Positions 12,717 to 52,433 of a stretch of DNA of 64,000 nucleotides are shown piece after piece. How positions within the stretch are numbered: the first letter of the stretch is position 1; each line of letters starts with the position of its first letter. The stretch comes from Gemmatimonadaceae bacterium (GTDB lineage Bacteria; Gemmatimonadota; Gemmatimonadetes; Gemmatimonadales; Gemmatimonadaceae), in the NCBI GenBank assembly GCA_046261975.1, contig JBHENQ010000107.1:11006-75005 (forward strand), written 5' to 3'. The position numbers and the translations under genes were made by a program. The notes below the pieces were generated by a model that saw only the letters and a list, made by a program, of their open reading frames with translations, did not search any database and had not been told where the DNA came from.

Positions 12717-13259
12717 ATGATCAGGATGGCAATCGGCCTGAGCATCAGCTTTGCCCTGACGGCGGCGGCAACACGAGTTGACGCTCAACTCACTGGAATG
12801 GAACAGGAAACCACGCCCCGCATGGTTCGCGTTGGTTTTGGCGGCGGCGTGAGCGTTCCGGTCAGCGATGCGAAAGACGCGCTCAAAAACGGTATAAACG
12901 GTCAGGGGTACCTTCCGTTCCGGCTTCCTGGCGGCCTGCCGGCATTCCGGGTAAACGTCAGCTATCAGAAGTTCGATTTTAAGGAAGCCGTGCTCCTGCC
13001 TGGACAGACTGGTGACAGGCCATACATCACGGCTGGATTGGGCGCGTTCAATGTGAGGAATGCCATAGAGACAGCTTCAACCACTTCCAAAGTCTCGGAC
13101 ACCAAGTTCGGGATCGATGGTGGTGCCGGTTTCGCGCTCAAGTTGGGACGCATCGATGGCTTCATCGAAGCGCGAATCCAGAATGTATATACAGACGAAG
13201 GGATAATCGACACCAAAGGCGTTCAGTTCGTTCCTGTCACGTTTGGCCTGGTGTTTTGA
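12717..13259 (+). CDS. outer-membrane beta-barrel (OmpW/OmpA-like porin family) protein
   Basis: Signal peptide MIRMAIGLSISFALTAAA. 8-strand-sized (about 180 aa) alternating-hydrophobic pattern ending in ...VTFGLVF (C-terminal Phe). ATG at 12717. Confidence 0.55.
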   Translation: MIRMAIGLSISFALTAAATRVDAQLTGMEQETTPRMVRVGFGGGVSVPVSDAKDALKNGINGQGYLPFRLPGGLPAFRVNVSYQKFDFKEAVLLPGQTGDRPYITAGLGAFNVRNAIETASTTSKVSDTKFGIDGGAGFALKLGRIDGFIEARIQNVYTDEGIIDTKGVQFVPVTFGLVF

Positions 13260-13324
13260 ATCACGAATTGCTCCATCGCGCGTACAGAGGCGCATGTGGT
13301 CGAAGAGATGAAACACCCTGAGCT

Positions 13325-14182
13325 GTGATCGATCGTCGCGATTTTCTCAGGACACTTGGCGCGAGTGCGCTAGGTGCGGTGGGCGTGGCTGAGTCGGCGT
13401 GCGCGCCCCGAAGCGTTGCTTCCGGTACGAGCCGCATCGAGAGAATCGGCGTTCAGCTCTACACCCTGCGCAACGAGTTGGGCAAGGACTTCGACGGGAC
13501 CCTCGCGCGCGTGGCAGAGATCGGTTTCAAGGAAGTGGAGTTCGCCGGCTACTACGATCGCTCACCGGCGGACGTGCGCGCCACGCTCGATAAGCACGGG
13601 TTAACGGCACCCTCAGCTCATGTGGGAACCGCTGCGAACGTCGTCACCGGCTGGGCACAAACCATCGAGAACGCAAAGCTCATCGGTCACGAGTATCTGG
13701 GGGTCGCGTATCTCACGGTTGAAGAACGCAAGACGCTGGACGATTACCGGAAGCTGGCCGACATATTCAATCGCGCAGGCGAAACCGCCAGGAAGCTTGG
13801 CGTCCAGTTCGCGTATCACAATCACGATTTCGAGTTTGTCCCGATCGACGGCGCTGTGCCTTATGACATTCTGCTCGATCGCACGGATCCCGCGCTCGTG
13901 AAGATGGAGATGGACCTGTTCTGGATCACCAAGGCTGGCCACAAGCCACTCGAGTATTTTTCGCGGTACCCGGGCCGATTTCCTCTGGTGCACGTCAAGG
14001 ACATGGACGCCCGCGAGCGCATGGTGGACGTCGGCCGTGGCGCAATAGACTTCAAGGGAATTTTCGCTTTGAGAGAGCAGGCTGGCATCAGGCATTTCTT
14101 CGTCGAGCACGACGAGCCCAAGCCTGACGGCCTCGCTAGCGTGAAATCGAGCTACGATCATCTCTTGCAACTGAGATTCTAG
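13325..14182 (+). CDS. sugar phosphate isomerase/epimerase (xylose-isomerase-like TIM barrel), TAT-exported
   Basis: Twin-arginine signal (DRRDFLRTLGASALGAVG). Family pattern of AP-endonuclease-2/xylose-isomerase-like TIM barrels. 285 aa. Confidence 0.7.
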   Translation: MIDRRDFLRTLGASALGAVGVAESACAPRSVASGTSRIERIGVQLYTLRNELGKDFDGTLARVAEIGFKEVEFAGYYDRSPADVRATLDKHGLTAPSAHVGTAANVVTGWAQTIENAKLIGHEYLGVAYLTVEERKTLDDYRKLADIFNRAGETARKLGVQFAYHNHDFEFVPIDGAVPYDILLDRTDPALVKMEMDLFWITKAGHKPLEYFSRYPGRFPLVHVKDMDARERMVDVGRGAIDFKGIFALREQAGIRHFFVEHDEPKPDGLASVKSSYDHLLQLRF

Positions 14183-14183
14183 C

Positions 14184-15074
14184 ATGACGCCCCTCTCGCG
14201 GCGCGCTATGCTCGCGACTACCGCGACAGCGGTCGTCGCGGCAGGATCGCTTGCCTTGGACGTCGCTGCTCAGAAGCAGCCGCGCGCGAAAGGAGTGGCC
14301 AGACGAGCGGCTGGGCGGCTACGGCAATCAGCCTCCCGCTGGTGTTACGATGGCATTCCTCTTCGTGAACTATGCAAAGCAGGCGCCAGGATGGGACTCA
14401 AGGGTATCGACCTCCTCCAGCCCACCGACTGGGAAGTAGTCCGCGAGTACGGTCTTGTTTGTTCGATGGGTTATCCCACCGCGCGCCCCGATTTTCTCAC
14501 CAACGGATTCAACAATCGTGCGAGTCACCGGATGCTGCTGTCCGAGCTCGAGCTGGCCATCCCGCGGGCGGCCAAGCATTCCGTGCCTAACGTGATCGCC
14601 ATGTTCGGAAACCGACAGGGCCGCGCTGATGCACAGGGCATCTCTGCGTGCATCGAGGGGCTGAATCGCATCAAATCCCTTGCCGAGGAACACAGCGTCA
14701 CCGTGTGCGTGGAGCTGCTGAACAGCAAGGTCGACCACAAGGACTACCACGGCGACAGTACGGCATTCGGCGTTGAAGTCGTGAAAGGCGTGGCCTCACC
14801 GAGGGTCAAGCTGCTATAGGATATCTATCACATGCAGATCATGGAGGGCGACGTCATCCGAACCATTCGAGCTAACATTGGCCACATCGCCCACTTCCAT
14901 ACCGGAGGCGTGCCAGGACGTAACGAGCTAGACGCGACACAGGAGCTGAACTGGCGTGCCGTAGCCAAGGCAATCGCCGATACCGGCTTCGGCGGTTTCG
15001 TCGCTCACGAGTTCGTGCCAACACGCGACCCGCTCACTTCGCTTCGAGAGGCTGTCGCGATCTGCGAGGTGTGA
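14184..15074 (+). pseudogene. hydroxypyruvate-isomerase-like TIM-barrel protein interrupted by an in-frame TAG (ORF pieces 14184..14819 and 14832..15074)
   Basis: Single continuous frame. Translation reads ...PRVKLL*DIYHMQIMEGDV..., where the family-conserved motif is LLYDIYHMQ. The stop (TAG, 14817-14819) replaces the conserved Tyr codon by a 1-nt change. TAT-type signal at N-terminus (SRRAMLATTATAVVAAGS). Confidence 0.55.
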
Positions 15075-15087
15075 TCGCTTCCGTCAG

Positions 15088-16854
15088 TTATTTCTCGGCG
15101 AGGTACTCTTTCACTTCCGCCTCCAGCACCAGCAGTGGCACAGACCCGTTGCGCAGGATCGCGTCGTGGAACTTCCTCACGTCGAAGCGATCCCCAAGTG
15201 AGCGCTCCGCGAGGGCGCGGAGCTCTCTGATCTTGATCTCTCCAAGCTTGTAGGCCAGCGCCTGGGCCGGCCACGAGATGTAGCGGTCCGTCTCGGTTCT
15301 CACCTCGTGCAGCGACAGCGCCGTGTGCTCGGCCATGTAGCTCAGCACTCGATCGCGCGTCCAGCCCTTTGAGTGAATTCCCGTATCTACAACCAGCCTG
15401 CAAGCACGCCACATTTCGTAGGTCAGACGTCCAAAATCACTGTAAGGGTCCGTGTAAAACCCCGCCTCGAGCCCGAGCCGCTCCGAGTATAAGCCCCAGC
15501 CCTCGCCGAACGCCGAGATGTACGTGAAACGCCGAAAGTCAGGCAACCCATCCAGCTCGCGCGCGAGGGAGATCTGCAGATGATGTCCCGGAACAGCCTC
15601 GTGTAGCGTGAGCGCTTCCAGCGCGTAGAACGGGCGGCTCGGCAAATTGTAAGTGTTCACCCAGTACTTGGACGACTCCGTGCTCCCTGGGGGCGCATTT
15701 ACATAACGGCCTGCCGTGTACTTCGGCGCAAGGTGAGCTGGCACCGGATCCACCCCATAGGGAGCACGAGGAAGGCGGCTAAAGAGCGATGGCAACTTGC
15801 CATCCATCCGCTTGGCGATCCATGATGCTCTCTCTAGCAGTTGTTCTGCCGATGTCGGATAGAACCGTGCATCGGTGCGAAGCATCTGGATGAACTCGGC
15901 CAGCGTGCCCGCGAAGCCTGAACGGCGCATCGCGGTTTCCATCTCGGCTCGAATACGCGCAACCTCCGAGAGACCGACTGTGTGGATCGAGTCGGCTGAT
16001 AGATCGAGCGTCGTATACTTCCGAATCTGACGCCTGTAGTAAGCAGCGCCGCCCGGAAGATCGCTGGCAGCGATGGTCTGTCTTGCACCGGGGATGTACT
16101 CGCCGCTCATGAAAGCGAGGAATTCACGGTACGCGGGTATGACGCTGTCGCGGATCACCGTGCGCGCCGCAAGCCGAAGTCTTTCTTTCTCACCGGAAGG
16201 CATGGCTTCCGGCAATTGGGTGAGCGGCTTGAAAAACACACTTGAATCGAGCGCGGTCACGATGTGCGTGCCGATGGTTACATCGTACCCGTCGAGGACC
16301 ACCCTCGGCATCGTGAATCCGGTCTCGAGCCCTCGCCTCATGAGGGCGATGTGCTCGCGAAAGTACCGGGGAGTTTGCCCCAGCCGCGCGATGTATTTCT
16401 CTACTTCCGTTGCGGTTTGATGCGGAGTCCGCGCTGGAAGTTGCGCAAGCGAAATGTGAAACCCGTCGTCCGCTAGGATGGGAATGCGATCGACCTCGCC
16501 CTCGATGTCGTCCAGCCACGTTCTAAGACGGTCTTCGAGCATGGCGGCGTTGATCCTGTCGTGGCGTGCAAGTGACCGGCGGTCGATCGTCCCGAGTCGC
16601 TTGAGGTAGAACGCGAGCGAGTCCTGCCTACGTTTCTGGTCGGCCTGCGACATTCCAGGCAAACGGTCATCGTAACGGCGGTCACCGACGCTGGTGGCGA
16701 GAAGAGGATTCTCCCGCAACTCGAACTCCCACGCTGCGCCTATGATTGCGTGCAGCCGGGCGGATGCCGGCGTTGCTCGCGTACGCTGCGCGCCCGCCGG
16801 CGACGATACGAGGAGGAATGTGAGCAGCACGAGAAGAGTACGAGTCGAGAGCAT
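15088..16854 (-). CDS. DUF885 family secreted protein (predicted metallopeptidase-like)
   Basis: Signal peptide. Hallmark DUF885 motif LHEAVPGHHLQ. 588 aa. Confidence 0.75.
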   Translation of the reverse strand: MLSTRTLLVLLTFLLVSSPAGAQRTRATPASARLHAIIGAAWEFELRENPLLATSVGDRRYDDRLPGMSQADQKRRQDSLAFYLKRLGTIDRRSLARHDRINAAMLEDRLRTWLDDIEGEVDRIPILADDGFHISLAQLPARTPHQTATEVEKYIARLGQTPRYFREHIALMRRGLETGFTMPRVVLDGYDVTIGTHIVTALDSSVFFKPLTQLPEAMPSGEKERLRLAARTVIRDSVIPAYREFLAFMSGEYIPGARQTIAASDLPGGAAYYRRQIRKYTTLDLSADSIHTVGLSEVARIRAEMETAMRRSGFAGTLAEFIQMLRTDARFYPTSAEQLLERASWIAKRMDGKLPSLFSRLPRAPYGVDPVPAHLAPKYTAGRYVNAPPGSTESSKYWVNTYNLPSRPFYALEALTLHEAVPGHHLQISLARELDGLPDFRRFTYISAFGEGWGLYSERLGLEAGFYTDPYSDFGRLTYEMWRACRLVVDTGIHSKGWTRDRVLSYMAEHTALSLHEVRTETDRYISWPAQALAYKLGEIKIRELRALAERSLGDRFDVRKFHDAILRNGSVPLLVLEAEVKEYLAEK

Positions 16855-16924
16855 GGCAGGCAGATGAGTAGTATGGATCTTATTTTCAATCGGAAAAGTG
16901 ATGTTTCGGATTTAAGAGCTACTA

Positions 16925-16957
16925 CCCCACACCCCACACCCCACACCCGATCCCCCC
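16925..16957. repeat. tandem CCCCACA heptamers (x3-4) in the divergent promoter region between DUF885 and the GMC oxidoreductase
   Basis: ccccacaccccacaccccacacccgatcccccc read directly; complement is GTGGGGT x3. Confidence 0.8.
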
Positions 16958-17055
16958 AAACGTTGGCACGCACGGCCGAAAATCGCCATTCTGGAGTTGG
17001 CACCCCCCGCCCTCTGGTAGTAGCTTGGCGCCAACCAGATACAGGAAGACACCGG

Positions 17056-18750
17056 ATGCAGGAAACCTCCAGGTCAGACCTCTACGACGTCTGCATAGTT
17101 GGCTCCGGTGCAGGCGGCGGAATGGCGGCCTATACCCTCGCCCACGCCGGTGCCAGGGTGGTGATGCTCGAAGCTGGTCCGATGTGGGACAACAGGAAAG
17201 ACTCGGCCATGTTCAAGTGGCCCTACGAATCTCCGCGACGCGGTGCCGCTACACGCGAGAGGCCGTTCGGCGAATTCGATGCATGTCCGGGCGGATGGAA
17301 TCTTGAGGGGGAGCCTTATACGCGCGCCGCCGGCACGAAGTTTGACTGGTGGCGTGCACGTATGCTGGGAGGCCGCACGAACCATTGGGGCCGGATCTCT
17401 CTACGCTTCGGACCCGATGACTTTCGAGGCAAGAGCATGGATGGCCTGGGCGATGACTGGCCCATCGGTTACGACGACATCGCTCCGTACTACGACAAGA
17501 TCGACCGGCTCATTGGGATTTTCGGCAGCAACGAAGGTCTTCGCCAGCATCCCGACGGAATATTTCACAAGCCTCCACGGCCGCGGTGCTACGAGCTGTA
17601 CGTGAAACAAGCCGCAGACAAGCTGGGTGTCACCTGCATTCCGGCGCGACTCTCCATAATCACGAAGCCGCACAACGGCCGCGCGCCGTGTCATTACTGC
17701 GGCCAGTGTAACCGCGGCTGCATGACGACGTCGAATTTTTCGTCGCCCAACGTGCTCATCTTTCCCGCGCTCAGAACAGGCCGGCTCAAGCTCATTACCA
17801 ACGCCATGGCTCGTGAGGTGACGCTCGGTACGAATGGGCTCGCGAACGGCGTTTCTTACATTGACACGAAAACCGGCGCTGATCGCAGCATTCGGGCCTC
17901 CATCGTCGTGTTGGCTGCGAGTGCCTGTGAATCCGCTCGGCTACTGCTCAATTCCAGGTCATCACTGTTTCCCAATGGCCTCGCCAATTCGAGTGGCACC
18001 GTCGGCAAGTACCTCACCGACACTACAGGTACCGACGTCGCGGGATTCATACCTCGTCTCATGAATCACGTACCACACAACGAGGATGGCGTCGGTGGCG
18101 GGCACCTCTACATGCCCTGGTGGCTCAACAACAAGAAGCTCGATTTCCCTCGCGGCTATCATATCGAGATCTGGGGGGGACTCGGCGTGCCATCGTACGG
18201 ATTCATGGGTGGCATTCAGTCATACGCGGAGGGCGGCGGTTACGGACAGCAGCTCAAGAACGATTATCGGCGCTACTACGGGTCCACGATCGGCTTCTCG
18301 GGACGTGGAGAGATGATTCCGAACGCGCAGAGCTATTGCGAGCTCGACCCCGAAACAAAAGACAAATGGGGTATCCCGGTGCTGCGGTTCCACTGGAGAT
18401 GGACGGACCATGAGTACAGGCAGGTCAAGCACATGCAGGAGACTTTCCGCGATCTGGTGTTCGAGATGGGCGGCGAAGTGTTCTCTCCCATGCCGACTTC
18501 CGAGCAAGGCTATGGCATCGCCAACGGTGGAGCAATAATCCACGAGCTCGGCACCACGCGTATGGGGACCGATGCCGGCACTTCAGTGGTGAACGCCAAC
18601 TGCCAGGCGCACGACGTGAGAAATCTCTTCATCGCAGATGGCGGGCCGTTCGTCTCGCAGGCCGACAAGAATCCGACATGGACGATCCTGGCGTTATCCA
18701 TGCGCACAGCAGACTATATCAGCGACCAGCGAAAGAAAGGGGCCCTGTGA
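17056..18750 (+). CDS. GMC family FAD-dependent oxidoreductase
   Basis: Rossmann FAD motif DVCIVGSGAGGGMAAYTLAHAGARVVMLEAG and C-terminal GMC motifs. Start ATG 17056 with AGGAAG 8 nt upstream. The longer ORF from 16750 runs through the promoter and repeats. Confidence 0.8.
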   Translation: MQETSRSDLYDVCIVGSGAGGGMAAYTLAHAGARVVMLEAGPMWDNRKDSAMFKWPYESPRRGAATRERPFGEFDACPGGWNLEGEPYTRAAGTKFDWWRARMLGGRTNHWGRISLRFGPDDFRGKSMDGLGDDWPIGYDDIAPYYDKIDRLIGIFGSNEGLRQHPDGIFHKPPRPRCYELYVKQAADKLGVTCIPARLSIITKPHNGRAPCHYCGQCNRGCMTTSNFSSPNVLIFPALRTGRLKLITNAMAREVTLGTNGLANGVSYIDTKTGADRSIRASIVVLAASACESARLLLNSRSSLFPNGLANSSGTVGKYLTDTTGTDVAGFIPRLMNHVPHNEDGVGGGHLYMPWWLNNKKLDFPRGYHIEIWGGLGVPSYGFMGGIQSYAEGGGYGQQLKNDYRRYYGSTIGFSGRGEMIPNAQSYCELDPETKDKWGIPVLRFHWRWTDHEYRQVKHMQETFRDLVFEMGGEVFSPMPTSEQGYGIANGGAIIHELGTTRMGTDAGTSVVNANCQAHDVRNLFIADGGPFVSQADKNPTWTILALSMRTADYISDQRKKGAL

Positions 18751-19358
18751 CCGACATCGACCGAAGGCACGCCATCACGTTGCTGGCGGCGACGCCGGTG
18801 GCTGTTCTGACTTTGTCGCGTGCCGAGCTGGATCGTGCAGCCCAGCATGCACGCCGTGCGCTGGAACGACTAGCCTCGCGTGGCGAAGCCTATGCCCCCA
18901 AGTTTTTCACCGCTCATGAATGGCGGACCGTGCGAATGCTCTCGGACCTGGTGATTCCTCGCGATCGCCGCTCCGGGAGCGCTACGGACGCCGGTGTTCC
19001 CGAATTCATGGACTTCATAATGACCGAGTACCCGGCTAGCCAGAAGAATATGCGGGATGGGCTGGCGTGGCTCGATTCCGAGTGCCAGAGGCGGCATGCC
19101 AATACGTTCGTTGCATCCACGCTGAAGGAACGTACGTTGGTGCTGGACGACATCGCCTGGCCTCGGCGTGCTCGCCCCGAAATGAAGGACGGTGTCACAT
19201 TCTTCAACAGCTTCCGTGATCTCACCGCCAGCGGTTTCTGGTCGAGCCGCATGGGGGTGAAGGATCTCCAGTACATGGGCAATACTGCGATCGCGGAGTG
19301 GAAGGGCTGCCCACCGTCGGCACTGCGTAAACTGGGAGTCTCCTACAGAACGAAATGA
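18747..19358 (+). CDS. gluconate 2-dehydrogenase subunit 3-like protein (TAT-signal small subunit partner of GMC dehydrogenases)
   Basis: GTG start overlapping the GMC stop (GTGA). Twin-arginine motif DRRHAITLLAATPVAVL. Family typical of small subunits paired with GMC flavoproteins. Confidence 0.6.
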   Translation: MTDIDRRHAITLLAATPVAVLTLSRAELDRAAQHARRALERLASRGEAYAPKFFTAHEWRTVRMLSDLVIPRDRRSGSATDAGVPEFMDFIMTEYPASQKNMRDGLAWLDSECQRRHANTFVASTLKERTLVLDDIAWPRRARPEMKDGVTFFNSFRDLTASGFWSSRMGVKDLQYMGNTAIAEWKGCPPSALRKLGVSYRTK

Positions 19359-19359
19359 C

Positions 19360-20601
19360 ATGAAAAACAACCGGCTCGGAATAGGCTTCGTTGGTAGCGG
19401 GTTCAATGCACGGTTTCATATCCAGGGCTTCACCGCCATCAGAGACGCTGACGTACTCGGCGTGTGGAGCCCCAACCGGAAGCGCGCGGAAGACACAGCC
19501 GCTTTTGCCCGCAACCTAGACGTTGGCGAGGCCAAAGCATTCGGATCCATCGAGGAAATGGTGGCCGATCCGGGCATCGATGCCATATGGCTTTGCGGGC
19601 CGAATCAGGCGCGCGTTGAGAACATGGAGGCGATCGTCGACGCGGTCGAGCGCGGACGGGGATCGCTTGTGGGAATCGCGTGCGAGAAACCGCTTGCCCG
19701 TAACGTCGCCGAGGCAAAGAAGGTGGCGGCACTTCTCAAACGCTCCGGCCTGATCGGTGGATACATGGAGAATCAGCTCTTTGCTCCACAGGTGGAACTG
19801 GGCCGCGCTCTCATCTGGGCTCGTGGTGCCGCGACAACCGGCCGCCCCTATCTGGCGCGTGCAGCTGAAGAACACAGCGGGCCGCACATGCCGTGGTTCT
19901 GGAAAGGCTCACTCCAGGGTGGCGGCGTTCTGAACGACATGATGTGTCACTCGGTACTCGTGGTACGCCACCTGCTCACTCGCCCGGGGGAACCTTTGTC
20001 ATCGGTACGTCCCGTACGCATTACGGGTCACGTCGCCAGCCTCAAGTGGACGCGTCCGGATTACGTGAAGCGCCTCAGCAAGATGATGGGCAGCGACGTG
20101 GATTACTCGAAGCAACCATCTGAAGACTTCGCCAGCGTCATGATAGAGTTTGAAACCGACGATGGCCATACGGTGCTGGGTGAAGCGACCACATCCTGGA
20201 GTTTCGTCGGCGCGGGCCTTCGACTCTCGGCGGAACTGCTGGGCCCGGAATACTCGATGTCGTGGAATACACTCGACAGCGGGCTACGGCTCTTCTTTAG
20301 CCGTGAGGTGAAGGGAAAGGCGGGCGAAGACCTCGTGGAAAAGCAGAACGCGGAGATGGGCCTGATGCCGGTGGTTGCGAGCGAAGCGGCTTTCTACGGG
20401 TACGAAGCCGAAGACCGTCACTTCGCGCGCGTATTTCTGGGGAAGGAAGCGCCGTTGCTGACTTTCGACGATGGGGTGGAGATCGTGACGCTGCTAATGG
20501 CGGCATACATGAGCGCTGAGCAGGGTGTCACCTTGAACTTCCCGCCCAAAGGGGTCGACAAATTCATCCCTGCTGTGGCAAAGGGGAAATGGAAGCCGTG
20601 A
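19360..20601 (+). CDS. Gfo/Idh/MocA family NAD(P)-dependent oxidoreductase
   Basis: N-terminal Rossmann RLGIGFVGSGFNARFH and GCEKPLA (EKP motif) typical of the family. 413 aa. Confidence 0.8.
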   Translation: MKNNRLGIGFVGSGFNARFHIQGFTAIRDADVLGVWSPNRKRAEDTAAFARNLDVGEAKAFGSIEEMVADPGIDAIWLCGPNQARVENMEAIVDAVERGRGSLVGIACEKPLARNVAEAKKVAALLKRSGLIGGYMENQLFAPQVELGRALIWARGAATTGRPYLARAAEEHSGPHMPWFWKGSLQGGGVLNDMMCHSVLVVRHLLTRPGEPLSSVRPVRITGHVASLKWTRPDYVKRLSKMMGSDVDYSKQPSEDFASVMIEFETDDGHTVLGEATTSWSFVGAGLRLSAELLGPEYSMSWNTLDSGLRLFFSREVKGKAGEDLVEKQNAEMGLMPVVASEAAFYGYEAEDRHFARVFLGKEAPLLTFDDGVEIVTLLMAAYMSAEQGVTLNFPPKGVDKFIPAVAKGKWKP

Positions 20602-20605
20602 CAGC

Positions 20606-22201
20606 ATGACAACAACGTTCAGGAGATTCGGCCGCATGTCGCGCTCGTCGGCCGGCATCCTTGGCATCGCCATCGAAGCAGCCTTTTTTCTCGTGCCGGC
20701 GCCCCACCGGCTGCAGGGCCAGACGCTTGGAACAATCCGTTTCCCCACATCGGGCAACAGTGAGGCGCAACCGCACTTCATTCGCGGCGTTCTCTTTCTG
20801 CACAGCTTCGAGTATGACGCCGCCGCCCGCGCTTTTCGTGAAGCACAGAAAAGTGATCCGGATTTCGCCATGGCGTATTGGGGCGAAGCCATGACATACA
20901 ACCACCCCGTCTGGAACGAACAGGACCTCAAAGCCGCGCGAGAAGCGCTCGGTCGACTGGGCCCTGCCCCGATGGCCCGCAGCGCCAAGGCGCCTACACC
21001 ACGTGAGCGCGCCTATCTTCAAGCCGTGGAAGTTCTCTACGGTGATGGACCCAAGCCAAAGCGCGATACCCTGTACTCGGAAGCGATGGCTGAGTTAGCC
21101 AGACAATACCCCGATGATCACGACGCCCAGACATTCTACGCGCTATCGCTGATTGGACTCGGTCAGGGCACACGTCACATTCCCACATACGAGCGCGCAG
21201 GGGTCATAGCATCCGAAGTGCTCAAGCAAAATCGTGATCACCCGGGCGCCGCACACTACATCATCCATGCCTACGATGATCCACTTCACGCTGCGCTGGG
21301 CCTCGAGGCAGCGCGAGCCTACTCGAAGATTGCACCCGACGCAGCGCACGCACAGCACATGACCACGCACATCTTCGTGGCACTGGGAATGTGGGACGAT
21401 GTCGTCTCGCAAAATGAGATAGCCTCGGGCCACGATCATTCGGCCTGGCGCCCGGGGCATTACACATCCTGGTTGGGTTATGGATACCTGCAACAGGGCC
21501 GCTACAGCGATGCGCGCAAGCAGTTGGAGACCGTACGTTCCAACGTGGGCGCTGCTGCAGCGCGCCCCGCGCGCGCGTCTCTGATCAGCATGCGCGCGCA
21601 CTACATCGTAAACACTCAAAGGTGGGACGATCCCGTCCTGAAGTGGGAGGTCGACACCACCGGAATCCACGGCATGCAGCTCGTTGACGCGTTTGTAAGG
21701 GGTATGGCCGCGCTGAGCAAGGGCGATCGTTCCGCCGCCGAAGGGCATCTGGCTCGAATTGCAGGTGCAAGCCGGAAGGCTTCGCCCGAAGATGATGATT
21801 ATCCGGTAATCCTCGAGAAACAGCTGCGAGCTTTGGTTAGACTCGCCGAAGGCAGTCGTGACGAGGCCGTTGCGTTGCTGCGCGAAGCGACGAAGCTGGA
21901 AGATGCGATGCCGTTGGAGTTCGGCCCGCCGGCCATAGCCAAGCCAACGCATGAGCTGCTCGGCGAGACCCTGATGAAGCTTGGGCGTCCGGCCGAGGCA
22001 GCCCGCGAGTTCGAGCGCGCACTCGAACTGACGCCGAAACGCGCCATCGCGCTATTGGGACTTGCTCGCGCGGCGGTCGCAACCGGGGACCGAGCGACCG
22101 CGGCCCGGACCTACTCGGAGCTGCTAGGAATCTGGCATCGGGCTGACGCAGATCTTCCTGCGCTTTCGGAGGCAGTGCGGATGTCAGCGTCGTCCCGCTG
22201 A
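20606..22201 (+). CDS. tetratricopeptide-repeat protein (function unknown)
   Basis: 531 aa. Repeated Ala/Leu/Tyr-rich helical pairs (AMAYWGEAMTYNHP...; KLGRPAEAAREFERALELTP). Signal-anchor-like N-terminus. 4 nt downstream of the Gfo/Idh/MocA gene. Confidence 0.5.
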   Translation: MTTTFRRFGRMSRSSAGILGIAIEAAFFLVPAPHRLQGQTLGTIRFPTSGNSEAQPHFIRGVLFLHSFEYDAAARAFREAQKSDPDFAMAYWGEAMTYNHPVWNEQDLKAAREALGRLGPAPMARSAKAPTPRERAYLQAVEVLYGDGPKPKRDTLYSEAMAELARQYPDDHDAQTFYALSLIGLGQGTRHIPTYERAGVIASEVLKQNRDHPGAAHYIIHAYDDPLHAALGLEAARAYSKIAPDAAHAQHMTTHIFVALGMWDDVVSQNEIASGHDHSAWRPGHYTSWLGYGYLQQGRYSDARKQLETVRSNVGAAAARPARASLISMRAHYIVNTQRWDDPVLKWEVDTTGIHGMQLVDAFVRGMAALSKGDRSAAEGHLARIAGASRKASPEDDDYPVILEKQLRALVRLAEGSRDEAVALLREATKLEDAMPLEFGPPAIAKPTHELLGETLMKLGRPAEAAREFERALELTPKRAIALLGLARAAVATGDRATAARTYSELLGIWHRADADLPALSEAVRMSASSR

Positions 22202-22256
22202 GCGCCTATCACGTGAGTCACGTGATCGCTGACGAGCGTGCTGGGAGGAGAACCCA

Positions 22257-23369
22257 GTGAAAGCTCCGTCTATTTTTCTGCTGCTCGCGTGGTGTTTACT
22301 GGTCGAACCGGATAGCGCGGTAGCCCAGACGGACCGGAAAACACGTAACGTTGTGCTGATCGTCACCGATGGCCTGCGCTGGCAGGAAGTCTTCGGTGGC
22401 GCTGATTCCTCGCTGATGAACCGGGAACACGGCGGCGTTGTAGACACAACGGCATTGCGTGAAAGATTCTGGCGCCGTACCGCCGACGCGCGGCGTTCCA
22501 TTCTTCTTCCGTTTTTCTGGAACGTGATCGCGACAAAAGGACAGGTCTACGGCAATCCCGCAAAAGCGAGCATCGCACGAGTCTCGAATGGCCTGAAGTT
22601 CTCGTACCCGGGCTACAACGAGCTCCTGACTGGATTTGTCGACGCCCGCATAACCAGCAACGAATTCGGCCCCAATCCCAACGTCACCGTATTCGAGTGG
22701 CTGGGCCGCCGTCCTGGTTTCAGAGGCAAGGTTGCGGCCTTCGGAACCTGGGACGCGTTCCGCGACATCTTCAACGACAAGCGCAGCGGCATCTTCATGC
22801 GCGTGGCCTGGGAGCAACCCATCACAGGCCCGCTTACGGGCTCGCAGGCCATGCTGGACAAGCTCTACCGCACGACTACGAGGCTGTGGGATGACGTCGT
22901 GTACGACTCCTTCATGCACGAGGCCTTGATGGATCACGTGCGCCGACATCGTCCACGGGTGCTGTTCGTCGGTTACGGCGAGACGGATATCTGGTCTCAC
23001 GATGGACGCTACGACTTGCTGCTTGGCGCTGCTCACCAGGTTGACGACTTTGTTTCGGATCTCTGGAGTACGATGCAGCAGATGCCGGAGTACCGCGGAA
23101 AAACGACGTTCATCATCACCACCGATCATGGTCGCGGGGACGGCCTTGCGAAGTGGAGGAATCACGGTCGAGACGTGGAGGGCGCTGAAGACATCTGGAT
23201 CGCCGTACTCGGCCCAGATACTCCTGCTCTCGGTGAGGTTAGGAATGCGACGCCAGTGACTCAGGGTCAGATCGCCGCAACCCTGGCGGCGCTGCTGGGA
23301 GAGAACTACGGGATGCACGTTCGCGCAGCTGCTCAGCCGATCTCTACCGCCTTGAGCGCGAAACCCTGA
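22257..23369 (+). CDS. alkaline-phosphatase superfamily protein (type I phosphodiesterase/nucleotide pyrophosphatase-like), secreted
   Basis: Signal peptide. N-terminal metal-ligand motif VVLIVTDGLRWQE (compare xxDGxRWD of NPP/AP enzymes). C-terminal ITTDHGRGDG His-metal motif. Confidence 0.6.
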   Translation: MKAPSIFLLLAWCLLVEPDSAVAQTDRKTRNVVLIVTDGLRWQEVFGGADSSLMNREHGGVVDTTALRERFWRRTADARRSILLPFFWNVIATKGQVYGNPAKASIARVSNGLKFSYPGYNELLTGFVDARITSNEFGPNPNVTVFEWLGRRPGFRGKVAAFGTWDAFRDIFNDKRSGIFMRVAWEQPITGPLTGSQAMLDKLYRTTTRLWDDVVYDSFMHEALMDHVRRHRPRVLFVGYGETDIWSHDGRYDLLLGAAHQVDDFVSDLWSTMQQMPEYRGKTTFIITTDHGRGDGLAKWRNHGRDVEGAEDIWIAVLGPDTPALGEVRNATPVTQGQIAATLAALLGENYGMHVRAAAQPISTALSAKP

Positions 23370-23391
23370 ACAGCAGCCTTCGGCTCATACC

Positions 23392-24024
23392 GTGATGGTA
23401 CGTCTCTACGATGTTTCGCAAGGAATCAGAGACGGTGGGCTCGCGTACCCCGGCGATCCACCCATCCGGATAACAGAGCACGAGTCTATCGCGGCCGGCT
23501 CGTCCGCCAACGTTTCAGCACTCAGTTTCGGCTCACATACAGGCACACACGTCGACGCTCCTTTGCACTTTATCGATGGAGGTGCGCCCGTCGACGCGAT
23601 TCCACTCGGTCATCTAATCGGGCCCGCGATTCTGGTGAGGTTCGAGGACAGTCTACGCGTCATCCGCAAGAGAGATCTCGAGCACAAAGACCTTCGAGGG
23701 CACCCGCGCGTCCTCCTGGCGACGCGCAATTCCGCTTTGCTACGCCAGCGTGAATTTCAGACGGATTACACTTATCTGTCCCCGGATGGTGCGGAATATC
23801 TTGCCAGTATCGGTGTCGTGCTTGTGGGCATCGACTATCTCTCCGTCGAACAGTTTCACTCTGGACATCACCGAACTCACCTGACGCTCCTGGAGCGCGG
23901 CATAGTGATAGTGGAAGGGCTCGATCTGTCGCAGCCTATGCCCGGCGAGTATGAGCTGATGTGCCTGCCTCTGAAGCTAGTCGGGCGCGACGGCGCACCG
24001 GCGCGCGCGGTGTTGCGAGGGTAG
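23392..24024 (+). CDS. cyclase family protein (kynurenine formamidase-like)
   Basis: GSHTGTHVDAPLHF motif of the putative-cyclase family (PF04199-type). 210 aa. Confidence 0.75.
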   Translation: MMVRLYDVSQGIRDGGLAYPGDPPIRITEHESIAAGSSANVSALSFGSHTGTHVDAPLHFIDGGAPVDAIPLGHLIGPAILVRFEDSLRVIRKRDLEHKDLRGHPRVLLATRNSALLRQREFQTDYTYLSPDGAEYLASIGVVLVGIDYLSVEQFHSGHHRTHLTLLERGIVIVEGLDLSQPMPGEYELMCLPLKLVGRDGAPARAVLRG

Positions 24025-24027
24025 CGG

Positions 24028-24927
24028 ATGCGACTCGCAATGATCGGACTGGGCCGCATGGGTGGCAACATGACGGAACGGCTGCTCCGCGGCGCTCATG
24101 AGCTTGTGGTATACGACCGGGATCCTGACGCGGCCATTCGTCTCGAGACGCTCGGAGCCACTGCCGCGACCTCTCTGTCCGACGTGGCCTCGCGACTCGG
24201 CGCGCCGCGCATAGTCTGGATCATGGTCCCCGCTGGTGATCCCGTCGAGCATACCGTTTCGGAGTTGACCCGTGTGCTCGGAAAGGGCGACATCATCATA
24301 GACGGAGGCAACTCCAACTTCCGCGACACCATGAGGCGCAGCGCTGGACTGCTCGAACATGGCATCGATTTGGTGGATTGCGGTACGAGCGGTGGAATCT
24401 GGGGACTCGAGAACGGGTACTGCTTGATGGCCGGGGGAGCCGATGGAGCTATCGCGCGCTGCGAGCCGCTCTTCCGGACGCTGGCACCCGCTGACGGCTA
24501 TGCGCATGTCGGTCCGTCCGGCGCGGGACATTTTGTCAAGATGATTCACAACGGTATCGAATATGGACTCCTTCAGGCGTATGGCGAAGGTTATGAGATG
24601 CTCCGGTCGAACCCCCATTTCGACCTTGACCTACCACAGGTCTCCGCCCTCTGGAATCACGGAAGCGTAGTGCGGTCATGGCTCAACGAGCTTGCTGCAT
24701 CCTCCTTTGCGGAGAATGCCACACTCGACGGCATCAGCGGTTATGTGGAGGACTCCGGCGAGGGACGATGGACGGTGCAGGAAGCCATCGCCATGAACGT
24801 TCCGGCGCCAGTAATCACATTGTCACTCCTCATGAGATTCCGTTCTCGGCAGAACGATTCGTTCTCCGCCAAGGTGATCGCCGCTCTCAGGAACCAATTC
24901 GGCGGGCACGTCGTGAAGAAGGAATGA
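24028..24927 (+). CDS. gnd: 6-phosphogluconate dehydrogenase (decarboxylating), short YqeC/Gnd-like form
   Basis: N-terminal NAD(P) motif MIGLGRMGGNM, 6PGDH C-terminal region. 299 aa. Stop overlaps the zwf start (ATGA). Confidence 0.8.
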   Translation: MRLAMIGLGRMGGNMTERLLRGAHELVVYDRDPDAAIRLETLGATAATSLSDVASRLGAPRIVWIMVPAGDPVEHTVSELTRVLGKGDIIIDGGNSNFRDTMRRSAGLLEHGIDLVDCGTSGGIWGLENGYCLMAGGADGAIARCEPLFRTLAPADGYAHVGPSGAGHFVKMIHNGIEYGLLQAYGEGYEMLRSNPHFDLDLPQVSALWNHGSVVRSWLNELAASSFAENATLDGISGYVEDSGEGRWTVQEAIAMNVPAPVITLSLLMRFRSRQNDSFSAKVIAALRNQFGGHVVKKE

Positions 24928-26576
24928 AACAGGACGGCGTGCGCCATGCAGTGCGCGCCACCAGAGATGAGCCGCGGGCACAGGCGCGCCGTGCCGATCC
25001 GTGCACCCTTGTCATTCTGGGCGCGGGTGGAGACCTGATGCGACGCAAGCTCTTGCCAGCGCTCTATAGCCTTGCCGCCAATAATCTGCTTCCAGACGAC
25101 TTTACGCTGCTGGGAGCCGCGCGGGCGCCGCTGACCGACGAGGAGTTCCGGACTTCGCTACTGGATGCGCTCGGCGAGTCGGAGGAGATTACGGCGGTGG
25201 ATGACGCCGCATGGCGGAAACTCTCTCGCGTGGTGTTTTACGTATCGGGTGACCTCACTGAGGACGATACCTATGTCCGACTCTCGGCACGGCTGAGTGA
25301 AATAGAAAGACCGCTTCCGGCTTCGACGCCGATAAACGATGCGAACCGTATGATCTATCTCGCATTGCCACCGAGCGTCTTTCCCACGGTTGTTCGGAAG
25401 CTTTCTTCGAGTGGCGTCGCTCCGCGCGCCATGGGTCCCGACTCACATCCATGGACGCGCATCGTAGTCGAGAAGCCATTTGGGCGCGACCTCGCCAGTG
25501 CCAGGCTCCTGAACCGCGCATTGCTGGAGCTCTTCGACGAGTCGCAGATATTCCGGATCGATCACTACCTCGGCAAGGAAACGGTTCAGAACATTCTCGT
25601 TTTCAGATTCGCGAATTCAATTTTCGAGGCCCTCTGGAATCGCAACCACATTGCGCACGTTCAGATCACGGCTGCCGAGAAGATCGGAGTCGGCGCGCGC
25701 GCGCAGTTCTACGAGGAGGCTGGTGTATTTCGCGACATGTTTCAGAACCACTTGCTGCAGCTCCTTGCCCTTACCGCGATGGAGCCGCCGGCTCGAGCGG
25801 ATGCCGGATCCATACGAGATGAAAAGGTAAAAGTCCTGCGATCGCTCGTGGCACCCTCCCTTGCGGGGGATTCTGTTCAAGCCACCGCCGCCCAATACGC
25901 CGCGGGACGGATCGACGGCGCGGATGTGCCGGGTTACCGGCAGGAGTCGGGTGTCGCTTCAGGTTCATTGTCGCCGACATTTGCAGCAGCTCGGTTCCTC
26001 ATCGACAACGCCCGGTGGAAGGGTGTGCCGTTCTACTTGAGGTCCGGCAAACGGATGGCCCGTCGCGTCACCGAAATTGCCATCCAGTTTCGCGATCCGC
26101 ACATGGCAATGTTCGGCAGTTACATGCGCGGGCCCAGATCCCCCAACGTGCTCGTACTTCGAATACAGCCTGACGAGGGGATCGGTCTTTCGATAGAGCT
26201 GAAATGCCCCGGACCGGCACTCGCTCTCACTCCGGAAGTCGAGGTCGGGATAGTATCCATGGACTTCGATTACTCAGAGGTGTTCGGTAGTACTAGTTTT
26301 CTGGCGTACGAAACGTTGCTACTGGACGTGATGCTGGGCGACGCGACCTTGTTCACGCGCAGCGATGAAGTTGAGGTGGCGTGGGGAATCGTCGATCCAC
26401 TCATCAGGCATTGGGATCGCCACCTAGGTGCACGCATCCCACTCTACGAGGCAGGAAGCTGGGGGCCTCCCGAAGCTCACGAGCTGATCGCGCTCGATGG
26501 TTTTGTTTGGCGAGAAGATTTCCCAGGCCCGGGCACACACGCAGTGCTGCCGCGGCAACCGACCTCACGGCCTTGA
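24924..26576 (+). CDS. zwf: glucose-6-phosphate 1-dehydrogenase
   Basis: NADP site ILGAGGDL, active-site RIDHYLGKE. 550 aa from ATG 24924 preceded by GAAGGA. Confidence 0.9.
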   Translation: MKQDGVRHAVRATRDEPRAQARRADPCTLVILGAGGDLMRRKLLPALYSLAANNLLPDDFTLLGAARAPLTDEEFRTSLLDALGESEEITAVDDAAWRKLSRVVFYVSGDLTEDDTYVRLSARLSEIERPLPASTPINDANRMIYLALPPSVFPTVVRKLSSSGVAPRAMGPDSHPWTRIVVEKPFGRDLASARLLNRALLELFDESQIFRIDHYLGKETVQNILVFRFANSIFEALWNRNHIAHVQITAAEKIGVGARAQFYEEAGVFRDMFQNHLLQLLALTAMEPPARADAGSIRDEKVKVLRSLVAPSLAGDSVQATAAQYAAGRIDGADVPGYRQESGVASGSLSPTFAAARFLIDNARWKGVPFYLRSGKRMARRVTEIAIQFRDPHMAMFGSYMRGPRSPNVLVLRIQPDEGIGLSIELKCPGPALALTPEVEVGIVSMDFDYSEVFGSTSFLAYETLLLDVMLGDATLFTRSDEVEVAWGIVDPLIRHWDRHLGARIPLYEAGSWGPPEAHELIALDGFVWREDFPGPGTHAVLPRQPTSRP

Positions 26577-26589
26577 GCCTGCGCAACTC

Positions 26590-27513
26590 ATGTTGCTAGC
26601 TCGGAGCATGATCCTCCGCGCTTCGCGCAGCCGTTTCCTGGCTGAGCAGTTTCGACGGCGTGCATTCGCTCGCCGCGCGGTGCGCCGGTTCATGCCGGGC
26701 GAAGATGTTTCCGCGGCCCTCGAAGCCTCCGTCGAATTCACCAAGCTTGGTATCGGCACAGTGCTCACCAACCTTGGCGAGCGAGTCACAACCAGGGCCG
26801 AGGCTACAGGAGTCCGGGATCACTACCTTGGCGTCCTGAATGCAGTGCGGGAACGTGGCCTTCCGGCGCAGATCTCGGTCAAGCTCACGCACCTGGGCCT
26901 GAACGTCGACCAAACGCATTGCGCCGACCACGTGTTGGCGCTCGCCGAACACGCTTCGGTCGACGGGTCTACGGTGTGGCTCGACATGGAAGAATCGCAG
27001 TACACCGATGCTACCCTCACCATCTTTCGGCAGGTCCGGGAGAGACACTCCAACATCGGAGTATGCTTGCAGGCCTATCTCCGGCGCACGGCAGCCGATC
27101 TGGCCGCACTGATGCCGCTGGACCCAGCTATTCGCCTGGTGAAAGGCGCGTACAACGAGCCTCGTGAGATTGCCTTTAGCGAGAAACGAGATGTCGACGA
27201 GAACTTTTTCTCGATCGCGACGCAGCTACTCTCGCTCGCTGGTGATCGGCAGGTAGTACCGGTGTTCGGAACTCACGATATGGGCCTGATAGGCCGCATA
27301 CGCCACCACGCCGGCACTGCCGGGATACCCAGGAGCAATTACGAATTCCACATGCTCTATGGCATCCGTTCAAACGAACAGAGATCGCTCGCGTTGGACG
27401 GTTGCACAGTCAGCGTACTGATCAGTTACGGCACCGCATGGTTCCCCTGGTACATGCGCCGGCTGGCCGAGCGCCCGGCCAATGTTTGGTTCGTGGTCAG
27501 GAATTTGTTCTAG
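26590..27513 (+). CDS. proline dehydrogenase family protein
   Basis: Motifs IRLVKGAY and EFHMLYGI typical of PutA-type proline dehydrogenase domains. Start ATG 26590. 307 aa. Confidence 0.6.
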   Translation: MLLARSMILRASRSRFLAEQFRRRAFARRAVRRFMPGEDVSAALEASVEFTKLGIGTVLTNLGERVTTRAEATGVRDHYLGVLNAVRERGLPAQISVKLTHLGLNVDQTHCADHVLALAEHASVDGSTVWLDMEESQYTDATLTIFRQVRERHSNIGVCLQAYLRRTAADLAALMPLDPAIRLVKGAYNEPREIAFSEKRDVDENFFSIATQLLSLAGDRQVVPVFGTHDMGLIGRIRHHAGTAGIPRSNYEFHMLYGIRSNEQRSLALDGCTVSVLISYGTAWFPWYMRRLAERPANVWFVVRNLF

Positions 27514-27610
27514 GGAAATCGGGAATCGGGAATCGGGAATCGGGAATCGGGAATCGGGAATCGGATCCCGACTCCCGACTCCCGACTCCCGACTCCCGAC
27601 TCCCGACTCC
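27514..27610. repeat. inverted tandem heptamer arrays (GGGAATC)x6 - GGATCC - (CGACTCC)x6 between convergent genes
   Basis: Read directly. Left arm begins at the stop codon of the proline dehydrogenase gene and right arm ends at the stop of the TonB receptor gene. Arms complementary except one position per unit (A-C on plus strand, G-U on minus-strand RNA). Confidence 0.95.
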
Positions 27611-30280: not shown

Positions 30281-30374
30281 TACGCACCTCGTTGATGAAG
30301 GTCTGAAGCCTTTATTTGCGTTCACAGTTCGCTTTGCGACATACGTAATTGTACGTAGTCATGGTCGTGAAGAG

Positions 30375-30458
30375 CGGGTGTGGGGTGTCGGGTGTGGGGT
30401 GTCGGGTCTGAGATTTGGTCTGTTTCCTGTTAGCTGTTCCCTGTGAGCTGTTCGCTGG
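30375..30458. repeat. GGGTGTG/GGGTGTC heptamer array followed by CTGTTNC-type repeats upstream of the TonB receptor gene
   Basis: gggtgtggggtgtcgggtgtggggtgtcgggtc then ctgtttcctgttagctgttccctgtgagctgttcgctgg read directly. Confidence 0.8.
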
Positions 30459-30459
30459 T

Positions 30460-37890: not shown

Positions 37891-37898
37891 CACCCGAG

Positions 37899-49674: not shown

Positions 49675-49723
49675 AAATCCTTCACGATGGTGACACGCCT
49701 TCGCCGCGAATCGTCCGTCCAAC

Positions 49724-52426: not shown

Positions 52427-52433
52427 GTCTGTC

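Follow-up and report, generated by a model that had tools for sequence, protein, structure and literature searches.

A predicted gene cluster for non-hydrolytic 3-keto glycoside cleavage in the periplasm of Gemmatimonadota

We analyzed a 64-kb stretch of DNA from a Gemmatimonadaceae bacterium (NCBI GenBank assembly GCA_046261975.1, contig JBHENQ010000107.1, positions 11,006 to 75,005), which we call the window. It carries two groups of genes for putative sugar-modifying enzymes (Table 1; all coordinates are positions in the window). Locus 1 runs from the gene for a TIM-barrel protein (TIM1) to that for a Gfo/Idh/MocA oxidoreductase (Gfo1) and also encodes a second TIM barrel (TIM2) and a GMC flavoprotein with its small subunit. 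Locus 2 encodes another Gfo/Idh/MocA oxidoreductase (Gfo2), an MFS permease, and a DUF1080 protein. We think it likely that the two loci constitute one conserved Gemmatimonadota cluster for the non-hydrolytic cleavage of glycosides, through 3-keto intermediates, in the periplasm. The basis for this is family membership, conserved catalytic and metal-binding residues, export signals, and gene linkage. A sequence-only reading of the window had proposed a set of glycoside 3-oxidation and deglycosylation enzymes, exported by the twin-arginine translocation (TAT) pathway and encoded at two linked loci. Homology to crystallized enzymes, NCBIfam profile matches, and a gene neighborhood conserved within and across phyla all bear this out. 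The open reading frames (ORFs), domains, twin-arginine motifs, GTGA overlap, and in-frame stop codon that it listed were all recovered at the same positions. The cluster is a Gemmatimonadota instance of a kind of 3-keto glycoside cleavage that has already been published, and it overturns nothing in current understanding.

The published pathway begins with oxidation at C3 by AL3/BT3. Elimination follows, by AL1/BT1 for beta-glycosides or by the DUF1080 proteins AL2/BT2 for alpha-glycosides. AL2/BT2 also carry out a hydration, and the bound nicotinamide adenine dinucleotide (NAD) is probably recycled via reduction of 3-keto-glucose (Nasseri et al., bioRxiv 10.1101/2024.03.25.586180). In the pathway that we propose for the window, a glycoside whose 3-OH and 4-OH groups are free would be oxidized at C3 by one of two candidates. 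The first is TAT-exported Gfo2, in which locked-in NAD would be recycled by reducing a 3-keto-sugar. The second is the GMC protein, which would be exported by its TAT small subunit and would pass electrons from flavin adenine dinucleotide (FAD) through a 3Fe-4S cluster to a respiratory acceptor. The 3-keto group would acidify H2, and the aglycone would be eliminated by TIM1 (beta) or the DUF1080 protein (alpha) to leave 2-hydroxy-3-keto-glucal. The DUF1080 protein would then hydrate this glucal to a 3-keto-sugar, which could be reduced by Gfo2 in the periplasm or be imported by the permease and reduced by cytoplasmic Gfo1.

Enzyme families, conserved residues, and export signals

Families were called with Pfam and NCBIfam profiles, Protein Data Bank (PDB) chains were searched with phmmer, the window proteins were compared with relatives by tblastn, and cross-phylum identities were obtained with blastp. 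TIM1 matched PDB entries 8tcd, 8tcs, and 8tct with E values of 3e-33 to 1e-30 (3.4e-33 for 8tcd) and the Agrobacterium O-glycoside beta-eliminase AtOGE (8bvk) with an E value of 5e-26. From the 8tc/8td deposition series we assumed the first three to be AL1/BT1, and the AL1 residues fit 8tcd at a constant offset of 23. In the alignment, H99, H165, H167, D197, W200, and H223 of TIM1 correspond to His103, His178, His180, Asp211, Trp214, and His237 of AL1. The metal ligands (H165, D197, and H223) and the substrate contacts (H99, H167, and W200) are therefore all conserved. The position of the AL1 catalytic Glu272 is D263 in TIM1, which gives an E-H-D motif identical to that of the active eliminase AtOGE. 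Residue alignment to crystal structures thus confirms His/Asp/His ligands in TIM1 at the metal site that had been anticipated for the TIM barrels. The prediction that TIM1 is a 3-keto-beta-glycoside lyase is firmly supported.

Gfo2 matched 8tdf (9.6e-106) and 8tdh (1.1e-102). These were assumed to be AL3 from the same deposition series, and the six active-site residues published for AL3 map onto 8tdf with a uniform shift of 29. Neither depositor titles nor papers confirmed that the 8td and 8tc entries are AL3 and AL1. All six residues are present in Gfo2, where Q168, R199, W202, D255, H259, and Y351 correspond to AL3 Gln161, Arg192, Trp195, Asp248, His252, and Tyr349. Gfo2 also matched the NCBIfam family NF058561 (BT_2158_fam, "glycoside 3-dehydrogenase") with an E value of 6e-151. 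Firm support likewise exists for its predicted role as an AL3/BT2158-type glycoside 3-dehydrogenase with tightly bound NAD.

The best PDB matches of the DUF1080 protein were 4jqt (2e-52) and 8tda and 8tde (6e-33; 5.7e-33 for 8tda), of which the latter two were assumed to be BT2/AL2, from the Nasseri deposition series. Across 44 homologues its residues N151, E171-x-Q173, and Q267-x-H269 do not vary, and they were mapped, by motif and order only, onto BT2 Asn134, Glu164/Gln166, and Gln273/His275. The protein carries a signal peptide in which one cysteine (...IATASC) may be that of a lipoprotein, and its true start is probably at 33835 or 33799. It had been read as a 3-keto-disaccharide hydrolase, but DUF1080 enzymes have since been described as lyases of 3-keto-alpha-glucosides and hydratases of glucals, not as hydrolases (Nasseri et al.). 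A predicted role as a 3-keto-alpha-glycoside lyase and 2-hydroxy-3-keto-glucal hydratase is firmly supported.

Twin-arginine motifs occur in TIM1 (DRRDFL), TIM2 (SRRAML), the small subunit (DRRHAI), and Gfo2 (SRRSFV). Their conservation was assessed in relatives, which here means 80 loci, all from Gemmatimonadota metagenome-assembled genomes, found by scanning species-representative genomes with the GMC protein (73 to 81% identity; best, L001, 81%). The arginine pair and following hydrophobic stretch are kept in 33/34 TIM1, 17/18 TIM2, 72/78 small-subunit, and 13/16 Gfo2 homologues. As controls, GMC and Gfo1 homologues had such a motif at background level (6/79 and 4/55, respectively). The GMC protein begins directly with its FAD-binding Rossmann motif and has no signal peptide of its own. 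Therefore, it would be exported by hitchhiking on the TAT small subunit. Support for a periplasmic location of the pathway is firm.

Over its full length, the GMC protein matched the alpha subunit of the Burkholderia cepacia glucose 1-dehydrogenase BcGDH (7e-47) and the large subunit of fructose dehydrogenase (1e-38). C212, C218, and C222 align column for column with the BcGDH 3Fe-4S ligands Cys212, Cys218, and Cys222. H110 corresponds to the FAD-linking His105, and H496 and N539 correspond to the catalytic His476 and Asn519 (the roles of the BcGDH cysteines, covalent-FAD histidine, catalytic pair, and sugar contacts are from PMC6719666). The sequence-only reading had likened the protein to CarA. 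However, the CarA-type oxidases 7dve (2e-12) and 7qf8 (1e-15) match only residues ~430 to 558, and the full-length relatives are 3Fe-4S FAD dehydrogenases.

GMC proteins from gene clusters of other phyla are 59% (Hymenobacter) and 47% (Pseudoalteromonas) identical to that of the window. Those of Ketogulonicigenium and Xanthomonas are GlycDH-type, being 82% and 77% identical to GlycDH over its N-terminal 155 amino acids, the only part compared, which we translated by eye from the error-bearing supplement text of PMC10628242. These sequence comparisons place the window GMC protein as a homologue of GlycDH in a separate clade, here termed type B, together with Hymenobacter and Pseudoalteromonas. 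GlycDH is the enzyme characterized as a glycoside 3-dehydrogenase, and because identity to GlycDH-type proteins is only ~33%, the C3 regiochemistry of the predicted GMC dehydrogenase is unproven. It is gene context that points to C3.

Placement of the small subunit after the GMC subunit had been taken for a reversal of the usual order, but for this subfamily it is normal. The GMC gene precedes the small-subunit gene in 72/72 relatives and also in Hymenobacter, Pseudoalteromonas, Ketogulonicigenium, and Xanthomonas, and the GlycDH pair AEX01166/AEX01167 is arranged likewise (PMC10628242). Many relatives have a second pair, small'-GMC', upstream of TIM1-TIM2 (L005, L018, L027, L031, L045, L061, L069, L070, L074, and others), which is missing from the window. 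The GMC' paralogue is ~50% identical to GlycDH-type genes and has its own small-subunit gene in front (e.g., L027 5934-8247). Both orders thus coexist in one cluster, so subunit order is specific to the paralogue. On plasmid 1 of Gemmatirosa kalamazoonensis (L085, 8262-12518), a tandem pair of GlycDH-type GMC genes, with 65% and 68% identity to the Ketogulonicigenium gene, precedes a single small-subunit gene. The closest annotated homologues of the window GMC protein and small subunit (59% and 38% identity) are on a Hymenobacter volaticus plasmid (L081, 1-19698). They are in a polysaccharide-utilization-type locus with GH92, two SusC/SusD pairs, and LacI regulators, and no lyase genes are nearby.

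Gfo1 has no signal peptide, with its Rossmann motif starting at residue 9. It matched no specific NCBIfam family, and there was no match to NF058563 (BT_2159_fam) at E≤1e-3. On Sinorhizobium pSymB, the genes for homologues ~51% identical have those for a LacI regulator and a sugar ABC importer next to them. We also considered Gfo1 as a ThuB-type disaccharide 3-dehydrogenase, but this is unsupported, and there is no ThuA gene beside the Sinorhizobium homologue. Its context suggests that Gfo1 may reduce an imported 3-keto-sugar. Context also suggests that the permease, which is 51% identical to a "nucleoside permease" inside a Xanthomonas sacchari cluster, may import the released sugar, a 3-keto-sugar, or a small glycoside. 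A TonB-dependent receptor gene lies 134 nucleotides downstream of the locus 2 operon. It is next to the cluster only in the window, relatives being without it there, and it is possibly a genome-specific uptake component.

The TIM2 gene is interrupted by its in-frame TAG. The Pfam half-matches on either side of the stop (profile positions 37 to 155 before it and 158 to 243 after it) join across it. The PDB matches of TIM2 were 3ngf (1e-12) and D-psicose/tagatose 3-epimerases, and it is 40% identical to the TIM barrel encoded immediately before the GMC gene in X. sacchari. The TAG stands where 20/20 relatives have an invariant tyrosine (LLYDIYHMQIMEGD), and TAG is the normal stop codon of the TIM1 and DUF1080 genes here. 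In this family, the part past the stop carries most of the metal ligands. Because the TAG replaces an invariant residue, TIM2 is probably inactive in this genome, unless the TAG is a sequencing error. TIM2 is an optional accessory. Periplasmic barrels of its type may epimerize or isomerize 3-keto-sugars next to the carbonyl, for example, 3-keto-galactose to 3-keto-glucose.

Gene linkage in relatives and in other phyla

Each neighborhood count takes only the relatives with enough flanking sequence, so denominators vary. In 48/61 relatives Gfo1 is within 10 kb of the GMC gene, and in 39 it comes straight after the small-subunit gene. TIM1 is no more than 3 kb upstream in 26/62 and TIM2 in 16/62. 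In the 10 kb downstream, 27/44 have at least one of the Gfo2, permease, and DUF1080 genes, and 13/44 have all three. All five partner families are present in 9 of the 37 relatives with long flanks. This grouping is more than chance.

The locus 2 genes have the same order and convergent orientation in relatives as in the window. In six species (L038, L036, L013, L059, L030, and L071) the gap between Gfo1 and Gfo2 is only ~9 to 180 nucleotides. The genes for TIM1, GMC, the small subunit, Gfo1, Gfo2, the permease, and the DUF1080 protein form a block of ~8 kb in L038, with efflux genes at one end and menaquinone-biosynthesis and two-component genes at the other. Because relatives often hold both loci as a compact convergent cluster, we conclude that the window loci are halves of one ancestral cluster and that 9.9 kb (20602-30459) was inserted at the convergent junction. 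The enzyme set had been described as split over two loci. That is how the genes lie in the window, but the split is an insertion in a single cluster. Other species have shorter, variable insertions at the same junction, and the DUF885 gene is another insertion, which is shared with L050.

Junctions within the window halves are tight. The GMC stop codon and the GTG start codon of the small subunit overlap as GTGA at 18747-18750, Gfo1 starts 1 nucleotide past the small-subunit gene, and the permease ATG follows the DUF1080 stop codon by 2 nucleotides. Altogether, the pathway genes form three transcription units over 20.6 kb. When both loci were scanned for promoters and terminators, the counts were at the level of shuffled sequence and no usable operon boundaries emerged. 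A search of the window against itself found no additional paralogues of the cluster genes.

Clusters of the same gene families occur in other phyla, and those of Pseudoalteromonas and Xanthomonas are single clusters. Pseudoalteromonas donghaensis has a single operon with genes for Gfo, TIM, MFS, DUF1080, GMC (47% identity), small-subunit, and TIM proteins. X. sacchari has genes for a TIM barrel (40% identical to TIM2), GMC, small-subunit, and DUF1080 proteins and, opposite these, genes for cytochrome c, a TIM barrel, Gfo, the NHS permease (51% identity), and a second TIM barrel. The order in Ketogulonicigenium is TIM, Gfo, GMC, small subunit, TIM.

Table 1. Features of the window
Feature	Positions	Strand	Profile matches	Assignment or remarks
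TIM1	13325-14182	+	AP_endonuc_2, 60 bits; weak TAT_signal match	Predicted metal-dependent 3-keto-beta-glycoside 1,2-lyase (AL1/BT1/AtOGE type)
TIM2	14184-15074	+	AP_endonuc_2, stop-interrupted	Hydroxypyruvate-isomerase/ketose-3-epimerase-like TIM barrel with TAT signal
In-frame TAG within TIM2	14817-14819	+		
DUF885 gene	15088-16854	opposite strand		Between TIM2 and GMC
GMC flavoprotein	17056-18750	+	GMC_oxred_N and GMC_oxred_C	Predicted periplasmic glycoside (C3) dehydrogenase, catalytic subunit, type B
Small TAT-signal "hitchhiker" subunit	18747-19358	+	Gluconate_2-dh3, 105 bits	
Gfo1	19360-20601	+	GFO_IDH_MocA	Cytoplasmic oxidoreductase
Intervening block	20602-30459			Outside the pathway: TPR, phosphodiesterase-like, cyclase, short 6-phosphogluconate dehydrogenase, glucose-6-phosphate dehydrogenase, proline dehydrogenase-like, TonB-dependent receptor
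TonB-dependent receptor	27611-30325	-	Plug, barrel, CarboxypepD_reg domains	
Gfo2	30460-31818	-	GFO_IDH_MocA	AL3/BT2158-type glycoside 3-dehydrogenase (predicted), TAT signal
NHS-type MFS permease	31830-33062	-	PF03825 Nuc_H_symport, 451 bits; TIGR00889, 450.9 bits (cutoff 446.1)	
DUF1080 protein	33065-33916	-	PF06439 3keto-disac_hyd, 187 bits	

Some genes around the cluster recur in relatives. A TPR protein gene (20606-22201) starts 4 nucleotides after Gfo1, and in L072 a counterpart with 65% identity likewise comes after Gfo1. Homologues that are 28 to 29% identical follow the small-subunit gene in L016 and L066, and the TPR gene may be cotranscribed. The phosphodiesterase/alkaline-phosphatase-like gene at 22257-23369 (weak PF01663 match) recurs beside the cluster in L002, L024, L029, and L068 (53 to 60% identity). 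Also in the inserted block, a gene for a short (299-amino-acid) 6-phosphogluconate dehydrogenase-like protein overlaps the start of the glucose-6-phosphate dehydrogenase gene (24028-26576). This pair fits sugar catabolism and is not kept beside the cluster in relatives. Directly flanking the L038 cluster (L038 493-3672) are genes for an MqnA-like protein, a histidine kinase, and an HD-GYP-type response regulator. The same genes are at 48838-53546 in the window, where the kinase has GAF and PAS domains. This is ~15 kb past the cluster end at 33916 and ~35 kb from TIM1, which indicates rearrangement.

Two further features lie beyond locus 2. Near-perfect heptamer arrays, GGAGTCG repeated 9.4 times (37688-37753) and TCCCGAC repeated 10.9 times (37822-37897), are ~68 nucleotides apart. 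They are mutual reverse complements and so could form a long hairpin. They lie at the 5' end of a gamma-glutamyltranspeptidase gene (35792-37939, minus strand), or upstream of that end, and inflate the apparent N terminus of its product with SRLPTPD and GVG repeats. Genes for a type III (43383-45647) and a type I (45929-47293) glutamine synthetase adjoin each other, both on the minus strand.

Alternative readings

Several observations count against a single 3-keto glycoside cleavage cluster. The 503-bit score of Gfo2 is below the BT_2158_fam equivalog cutoff of 750. Gfo1 is unrelated to BT2159 or to the reductase of the Agrobacterium-type cluster beyond the Rossmann domain. The BcGDH sugar contacts Asn474 and Asn475 are both isoleucine in the window GMC protein, which is only 33% (Ketogulonicigenium) and 32% (Xanthomonas) identical to GlycDH-type proteins. 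Nine of the 37 long-flank relatives have the GMC and small-subunit genes and no partner gene nearby. Because soil bacteria have many paralogues in these families, some of the genes may be neighbors by coincidence. There is no regulator among the cluster genes of the window or in the compact L038 cluster. Finally, there is no c-type cytochrome gene in the 64-kb window, where three CxxCH matches are all in noncoding frames, and none in the compact L038 cluster either. One candidate cytochrome c partner, an ORF at 13016-13318 with a CxxCH motif, was rejected as an out-of-frame artifact.

Some of these points would fit two separate modules. Locus 2, perhaps with TIM1, would be a 3-keto pathway, and the GMC protein, small subunit, and Gfo1 would make up a respiratory dehydrogenase for sugars or polyols (like gluconate-2-, fructose-, or glucose-1-dehydrogenase) that is unrelated to it and only shares the carbohydrate neighborhood. 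Among solved structures, the GMC protein indeed matches a glucose 1-dehydrogenase and a fructose dehydrogenase best, its distance from GlycDH and the nine relatives without partner genes are as noted above, and the Hymenobacter pair is in a polysaccharide-utilization locus with no lyases. Even so, we consider two modules unlikely. A DUF1080 or TIM1 homologue is in the locus of 25 of the 37 long-flank relatives, often immediately beside the GMC gene, and in Pseudoalteromonas the 47%-identical GMC gene is in one operon between DUF1080 and TIM1-like genes. The GMC protein scored 243 bits against GlycDH-type proteins and 163 bits against BcGDH, although these scores come from different programs (blastp and phmmer, respectively). 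A cytochrome c subunit like that of gluconate or fructose dehydrogenase is also missing.

We also asked what the GMC protein would do inside a single cluster. One tentative idea, to which we give a modest chance, is that the type B pair is the starter or reoxidant of an otherwise redox-neutral 3-keto pathway. The pair keeps the 3Fe-4S cysteines and has no cytochrome c gene close by; across Gemmatimonadota it is fixed beside the gene for cytoplasmic Gfo1 and linked physically to the AL3/BT2158-type operon. The GMC pair would irreversibly make the first 3-keto-glycoside, with electrons going to respiration, and that 3-keto-glycoside would keep the bound NADH of the periplasmic Gfo protein oxidized. 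Purified AL/BT enzymes are >100-fold faster with added 3-keto-glucoside (Nasseri et al.). If true, the starter idea would explain this stimulation and address the low rates that Nasseri et al. noted in vitro, and it would define an uncharacterized GMC clade that Gemmatimonadota share with Bacteroidota and Pseudoalteromonas.

The window could instead hold a decaying remnant, a split cluster with a broken gene whose pathway no longer works. The TAG at the invariant TIM2 tyrosine, the 9.9-kb insertion, the DUF885 gene inside locus 1, and the absent small'-GMC' pair all count in favor of one. However, the other ORFs are intact and full length with their catalytic residues kept, and the tight junctions (the 4-nucleotide overlap and the spacers of 1 to 2 nucleotides) are preserved. 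Many relatives have variable insertions at the same convergent junction, and many of their intact clusters do without TIM2 and GMC', which are therefore dispensable. We regard decay as very unlikely.

C-glycoside deglycosylation of the CarA/CarBC or DgpA/DgpBC type was the analogy drawn in the sequence-only reading. Its general chemistry stands, in that C3 oxidation is followed by metal-dependent beta-elimination in a TIM barrel. In addition, GlycDH (PMC10628242) and AL3/BT3 (Nasseri et al.) can oxidize C-glycosides, and Gfo2 weakly matches DgpA. The rest of the analogy does not hold, and we find a system of this type most improbable. No deglycosylase structure (7DNN, 7EXB, or 7EXZ) matched TIM1 or TIM2 at E≤0.01 when all PDB chains were searched with phmmer, and the nearest lyases, AL1/BT1 (Nasseri et al.) and AtOGE (PMC10628242), are inactive on 3-keto-C-glycosides. 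CarA-type oxidases cover only the C-terminal ~130 residues of the GMC protein, and Gfo2 is far nearer AL3 than DgpA (E values of the order of 1e-106 and 6e-12). No CarC/DgpC-like or unassigned ORF was evident beside the TIM barrels, though no specific search for one was made. The nearest systems are instead cleavers of O- and S-glycosides, namely, AL/BT2156-2159, GlycDH-AtOGE, and LacABC plus DUF1080.

Catabolism of inositol, cyclitols, or anhydrosugars (IolG/IolE-like or LgdA/LgdB-like), of which inositol catabolism had been named as the competing assignment, is barely tenable: the best NCBIfam match of TIM1 is IolE, and Gfo1 and Gfo2 match IolG and levoglucosan dehydrogenase models, but these scores are far below the cutoffs (58 bits versus 290 for TIM1-IolE, 52 and 70 versus 355 for Gfo1- and Gfo2-IolG, and 41 to 64 versus 650 for levoglucosan dehydrogenase), the matches to 3-keto-glycoside enzymes are much stronger, the cluster has no genes of the iolB/C/D/J type, and Iol and Lgd enzymes work in the cytoplasm whereas the window enzymes are periplasmic by their signals.

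Likeness to known systems and significance

Several characterized systems come close to the window cluster. AL1-AL4 of Alistipes sp. and BT2156-BT2159 of Bacteroides thetaiotaomicron, an "alternative broad-specificity" pathway (Nasseri et al.; Liu et al., PMC8121099), similarly have a TAT-exported Gfo 3-dehydrogenase, a TIM-barrel lyase whose metal site is the same, and a DUF1080 protein that carries a signal peptide. They share the logic of periplasmic oxidation, elimination, hydration, and reduction. However, the window genes are in two or three transcription units, there is no SusR/DUF6377 regulator, and Gfo1 is not BT2159-like. The window also adds an FAD-dependent (GMC) dehydrogenase with its hitchhiker, a permease of the NHS type, and one more TIM barrel, which is broken. 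Furthermore, the AL/BT hosts are gut anaerobes, whereas the host here belongs to an aerobic soil-type phylum.

In the operon of Agrobacterium tumefaciens and Rhizobium sp. GIN611 (Bitter et al. 2023, PMC10628242), the genes for GlycDH, a GMC protein, and the "TAT-pathway signal protein" coexpressed with it are joined by those for AtOGE, AtHYD, and a Gfo reductase. The window is like it in having a GMC gene followed by a TAT small-subunit gene, a TIM-barrel eliminase of ~280 amino acids, and a cytoplasmic Gfo protein. It differs in that the predicted hydratase is a DUF1080 protein rather than a ~350-amino-acid AtHYD-type TIM barrel, Gfo1 is not orthologous to the operon's reductase, and a BT2158-type periplasmic Gfo protein is added.

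In Caulobacter crescentus, the periplasmic GMC-type glucoside/lactose 3-dehydrogenase LacABC shares both its gene neighborhood and its fitness pattern (co-fitness) with homologues of DUF1080 and BT2156-2159 (Liu et al., PMC8121099; Price et al. 2022, PMC9007349). By the genetics given there (citing Arellano et al. 2010), these genes act together on lactose, salicin, and raffinose. This combination of a GMC-type 3-dehydrogenase with DUF1080 and BT2156-2159-type genes is like that of the window, the comparison being with the published description. LacABC is described as cytochrome c-dependent (PMC8121099), whereas the window has no c-type cytochrome gene.

BcGDH (gamma-alpha-beta; PDB 6a2u) is like the window GMC pair in its full-length catalytic homology, 3Fe-4S cysteines, FAD histidine, His/Asn pair, and export by a TAT hitchhiker. 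The window order is instead alpha then gamma, with no multiheme beta subunit. BcGDH oxidizes C1 of free glucose, whereas the window context points to C3 of glycosides.

The cluster extends oxidative, non-Koshland glycoside cleavage to the Gemmatimonadota, an abundant but poorly cultured soil phylum. It also means that genes annotated as "sugar phosphate isomerase," "nucleoside permease," "gluconate 2-dehydrogenase subunit 3," and "DUF1080" in such genomes become readable as one pathway. Members of the phylum habitually encode respiratory FAD-type and redox-neutral NAD-locked C3 dehydrogenases beside both lyase families and the permease. With the two kinds of dehydrogenase side by side, the phylum is a good place to ask how the routes cooperate and what reoxidizes the periplasmic Gfo protein.

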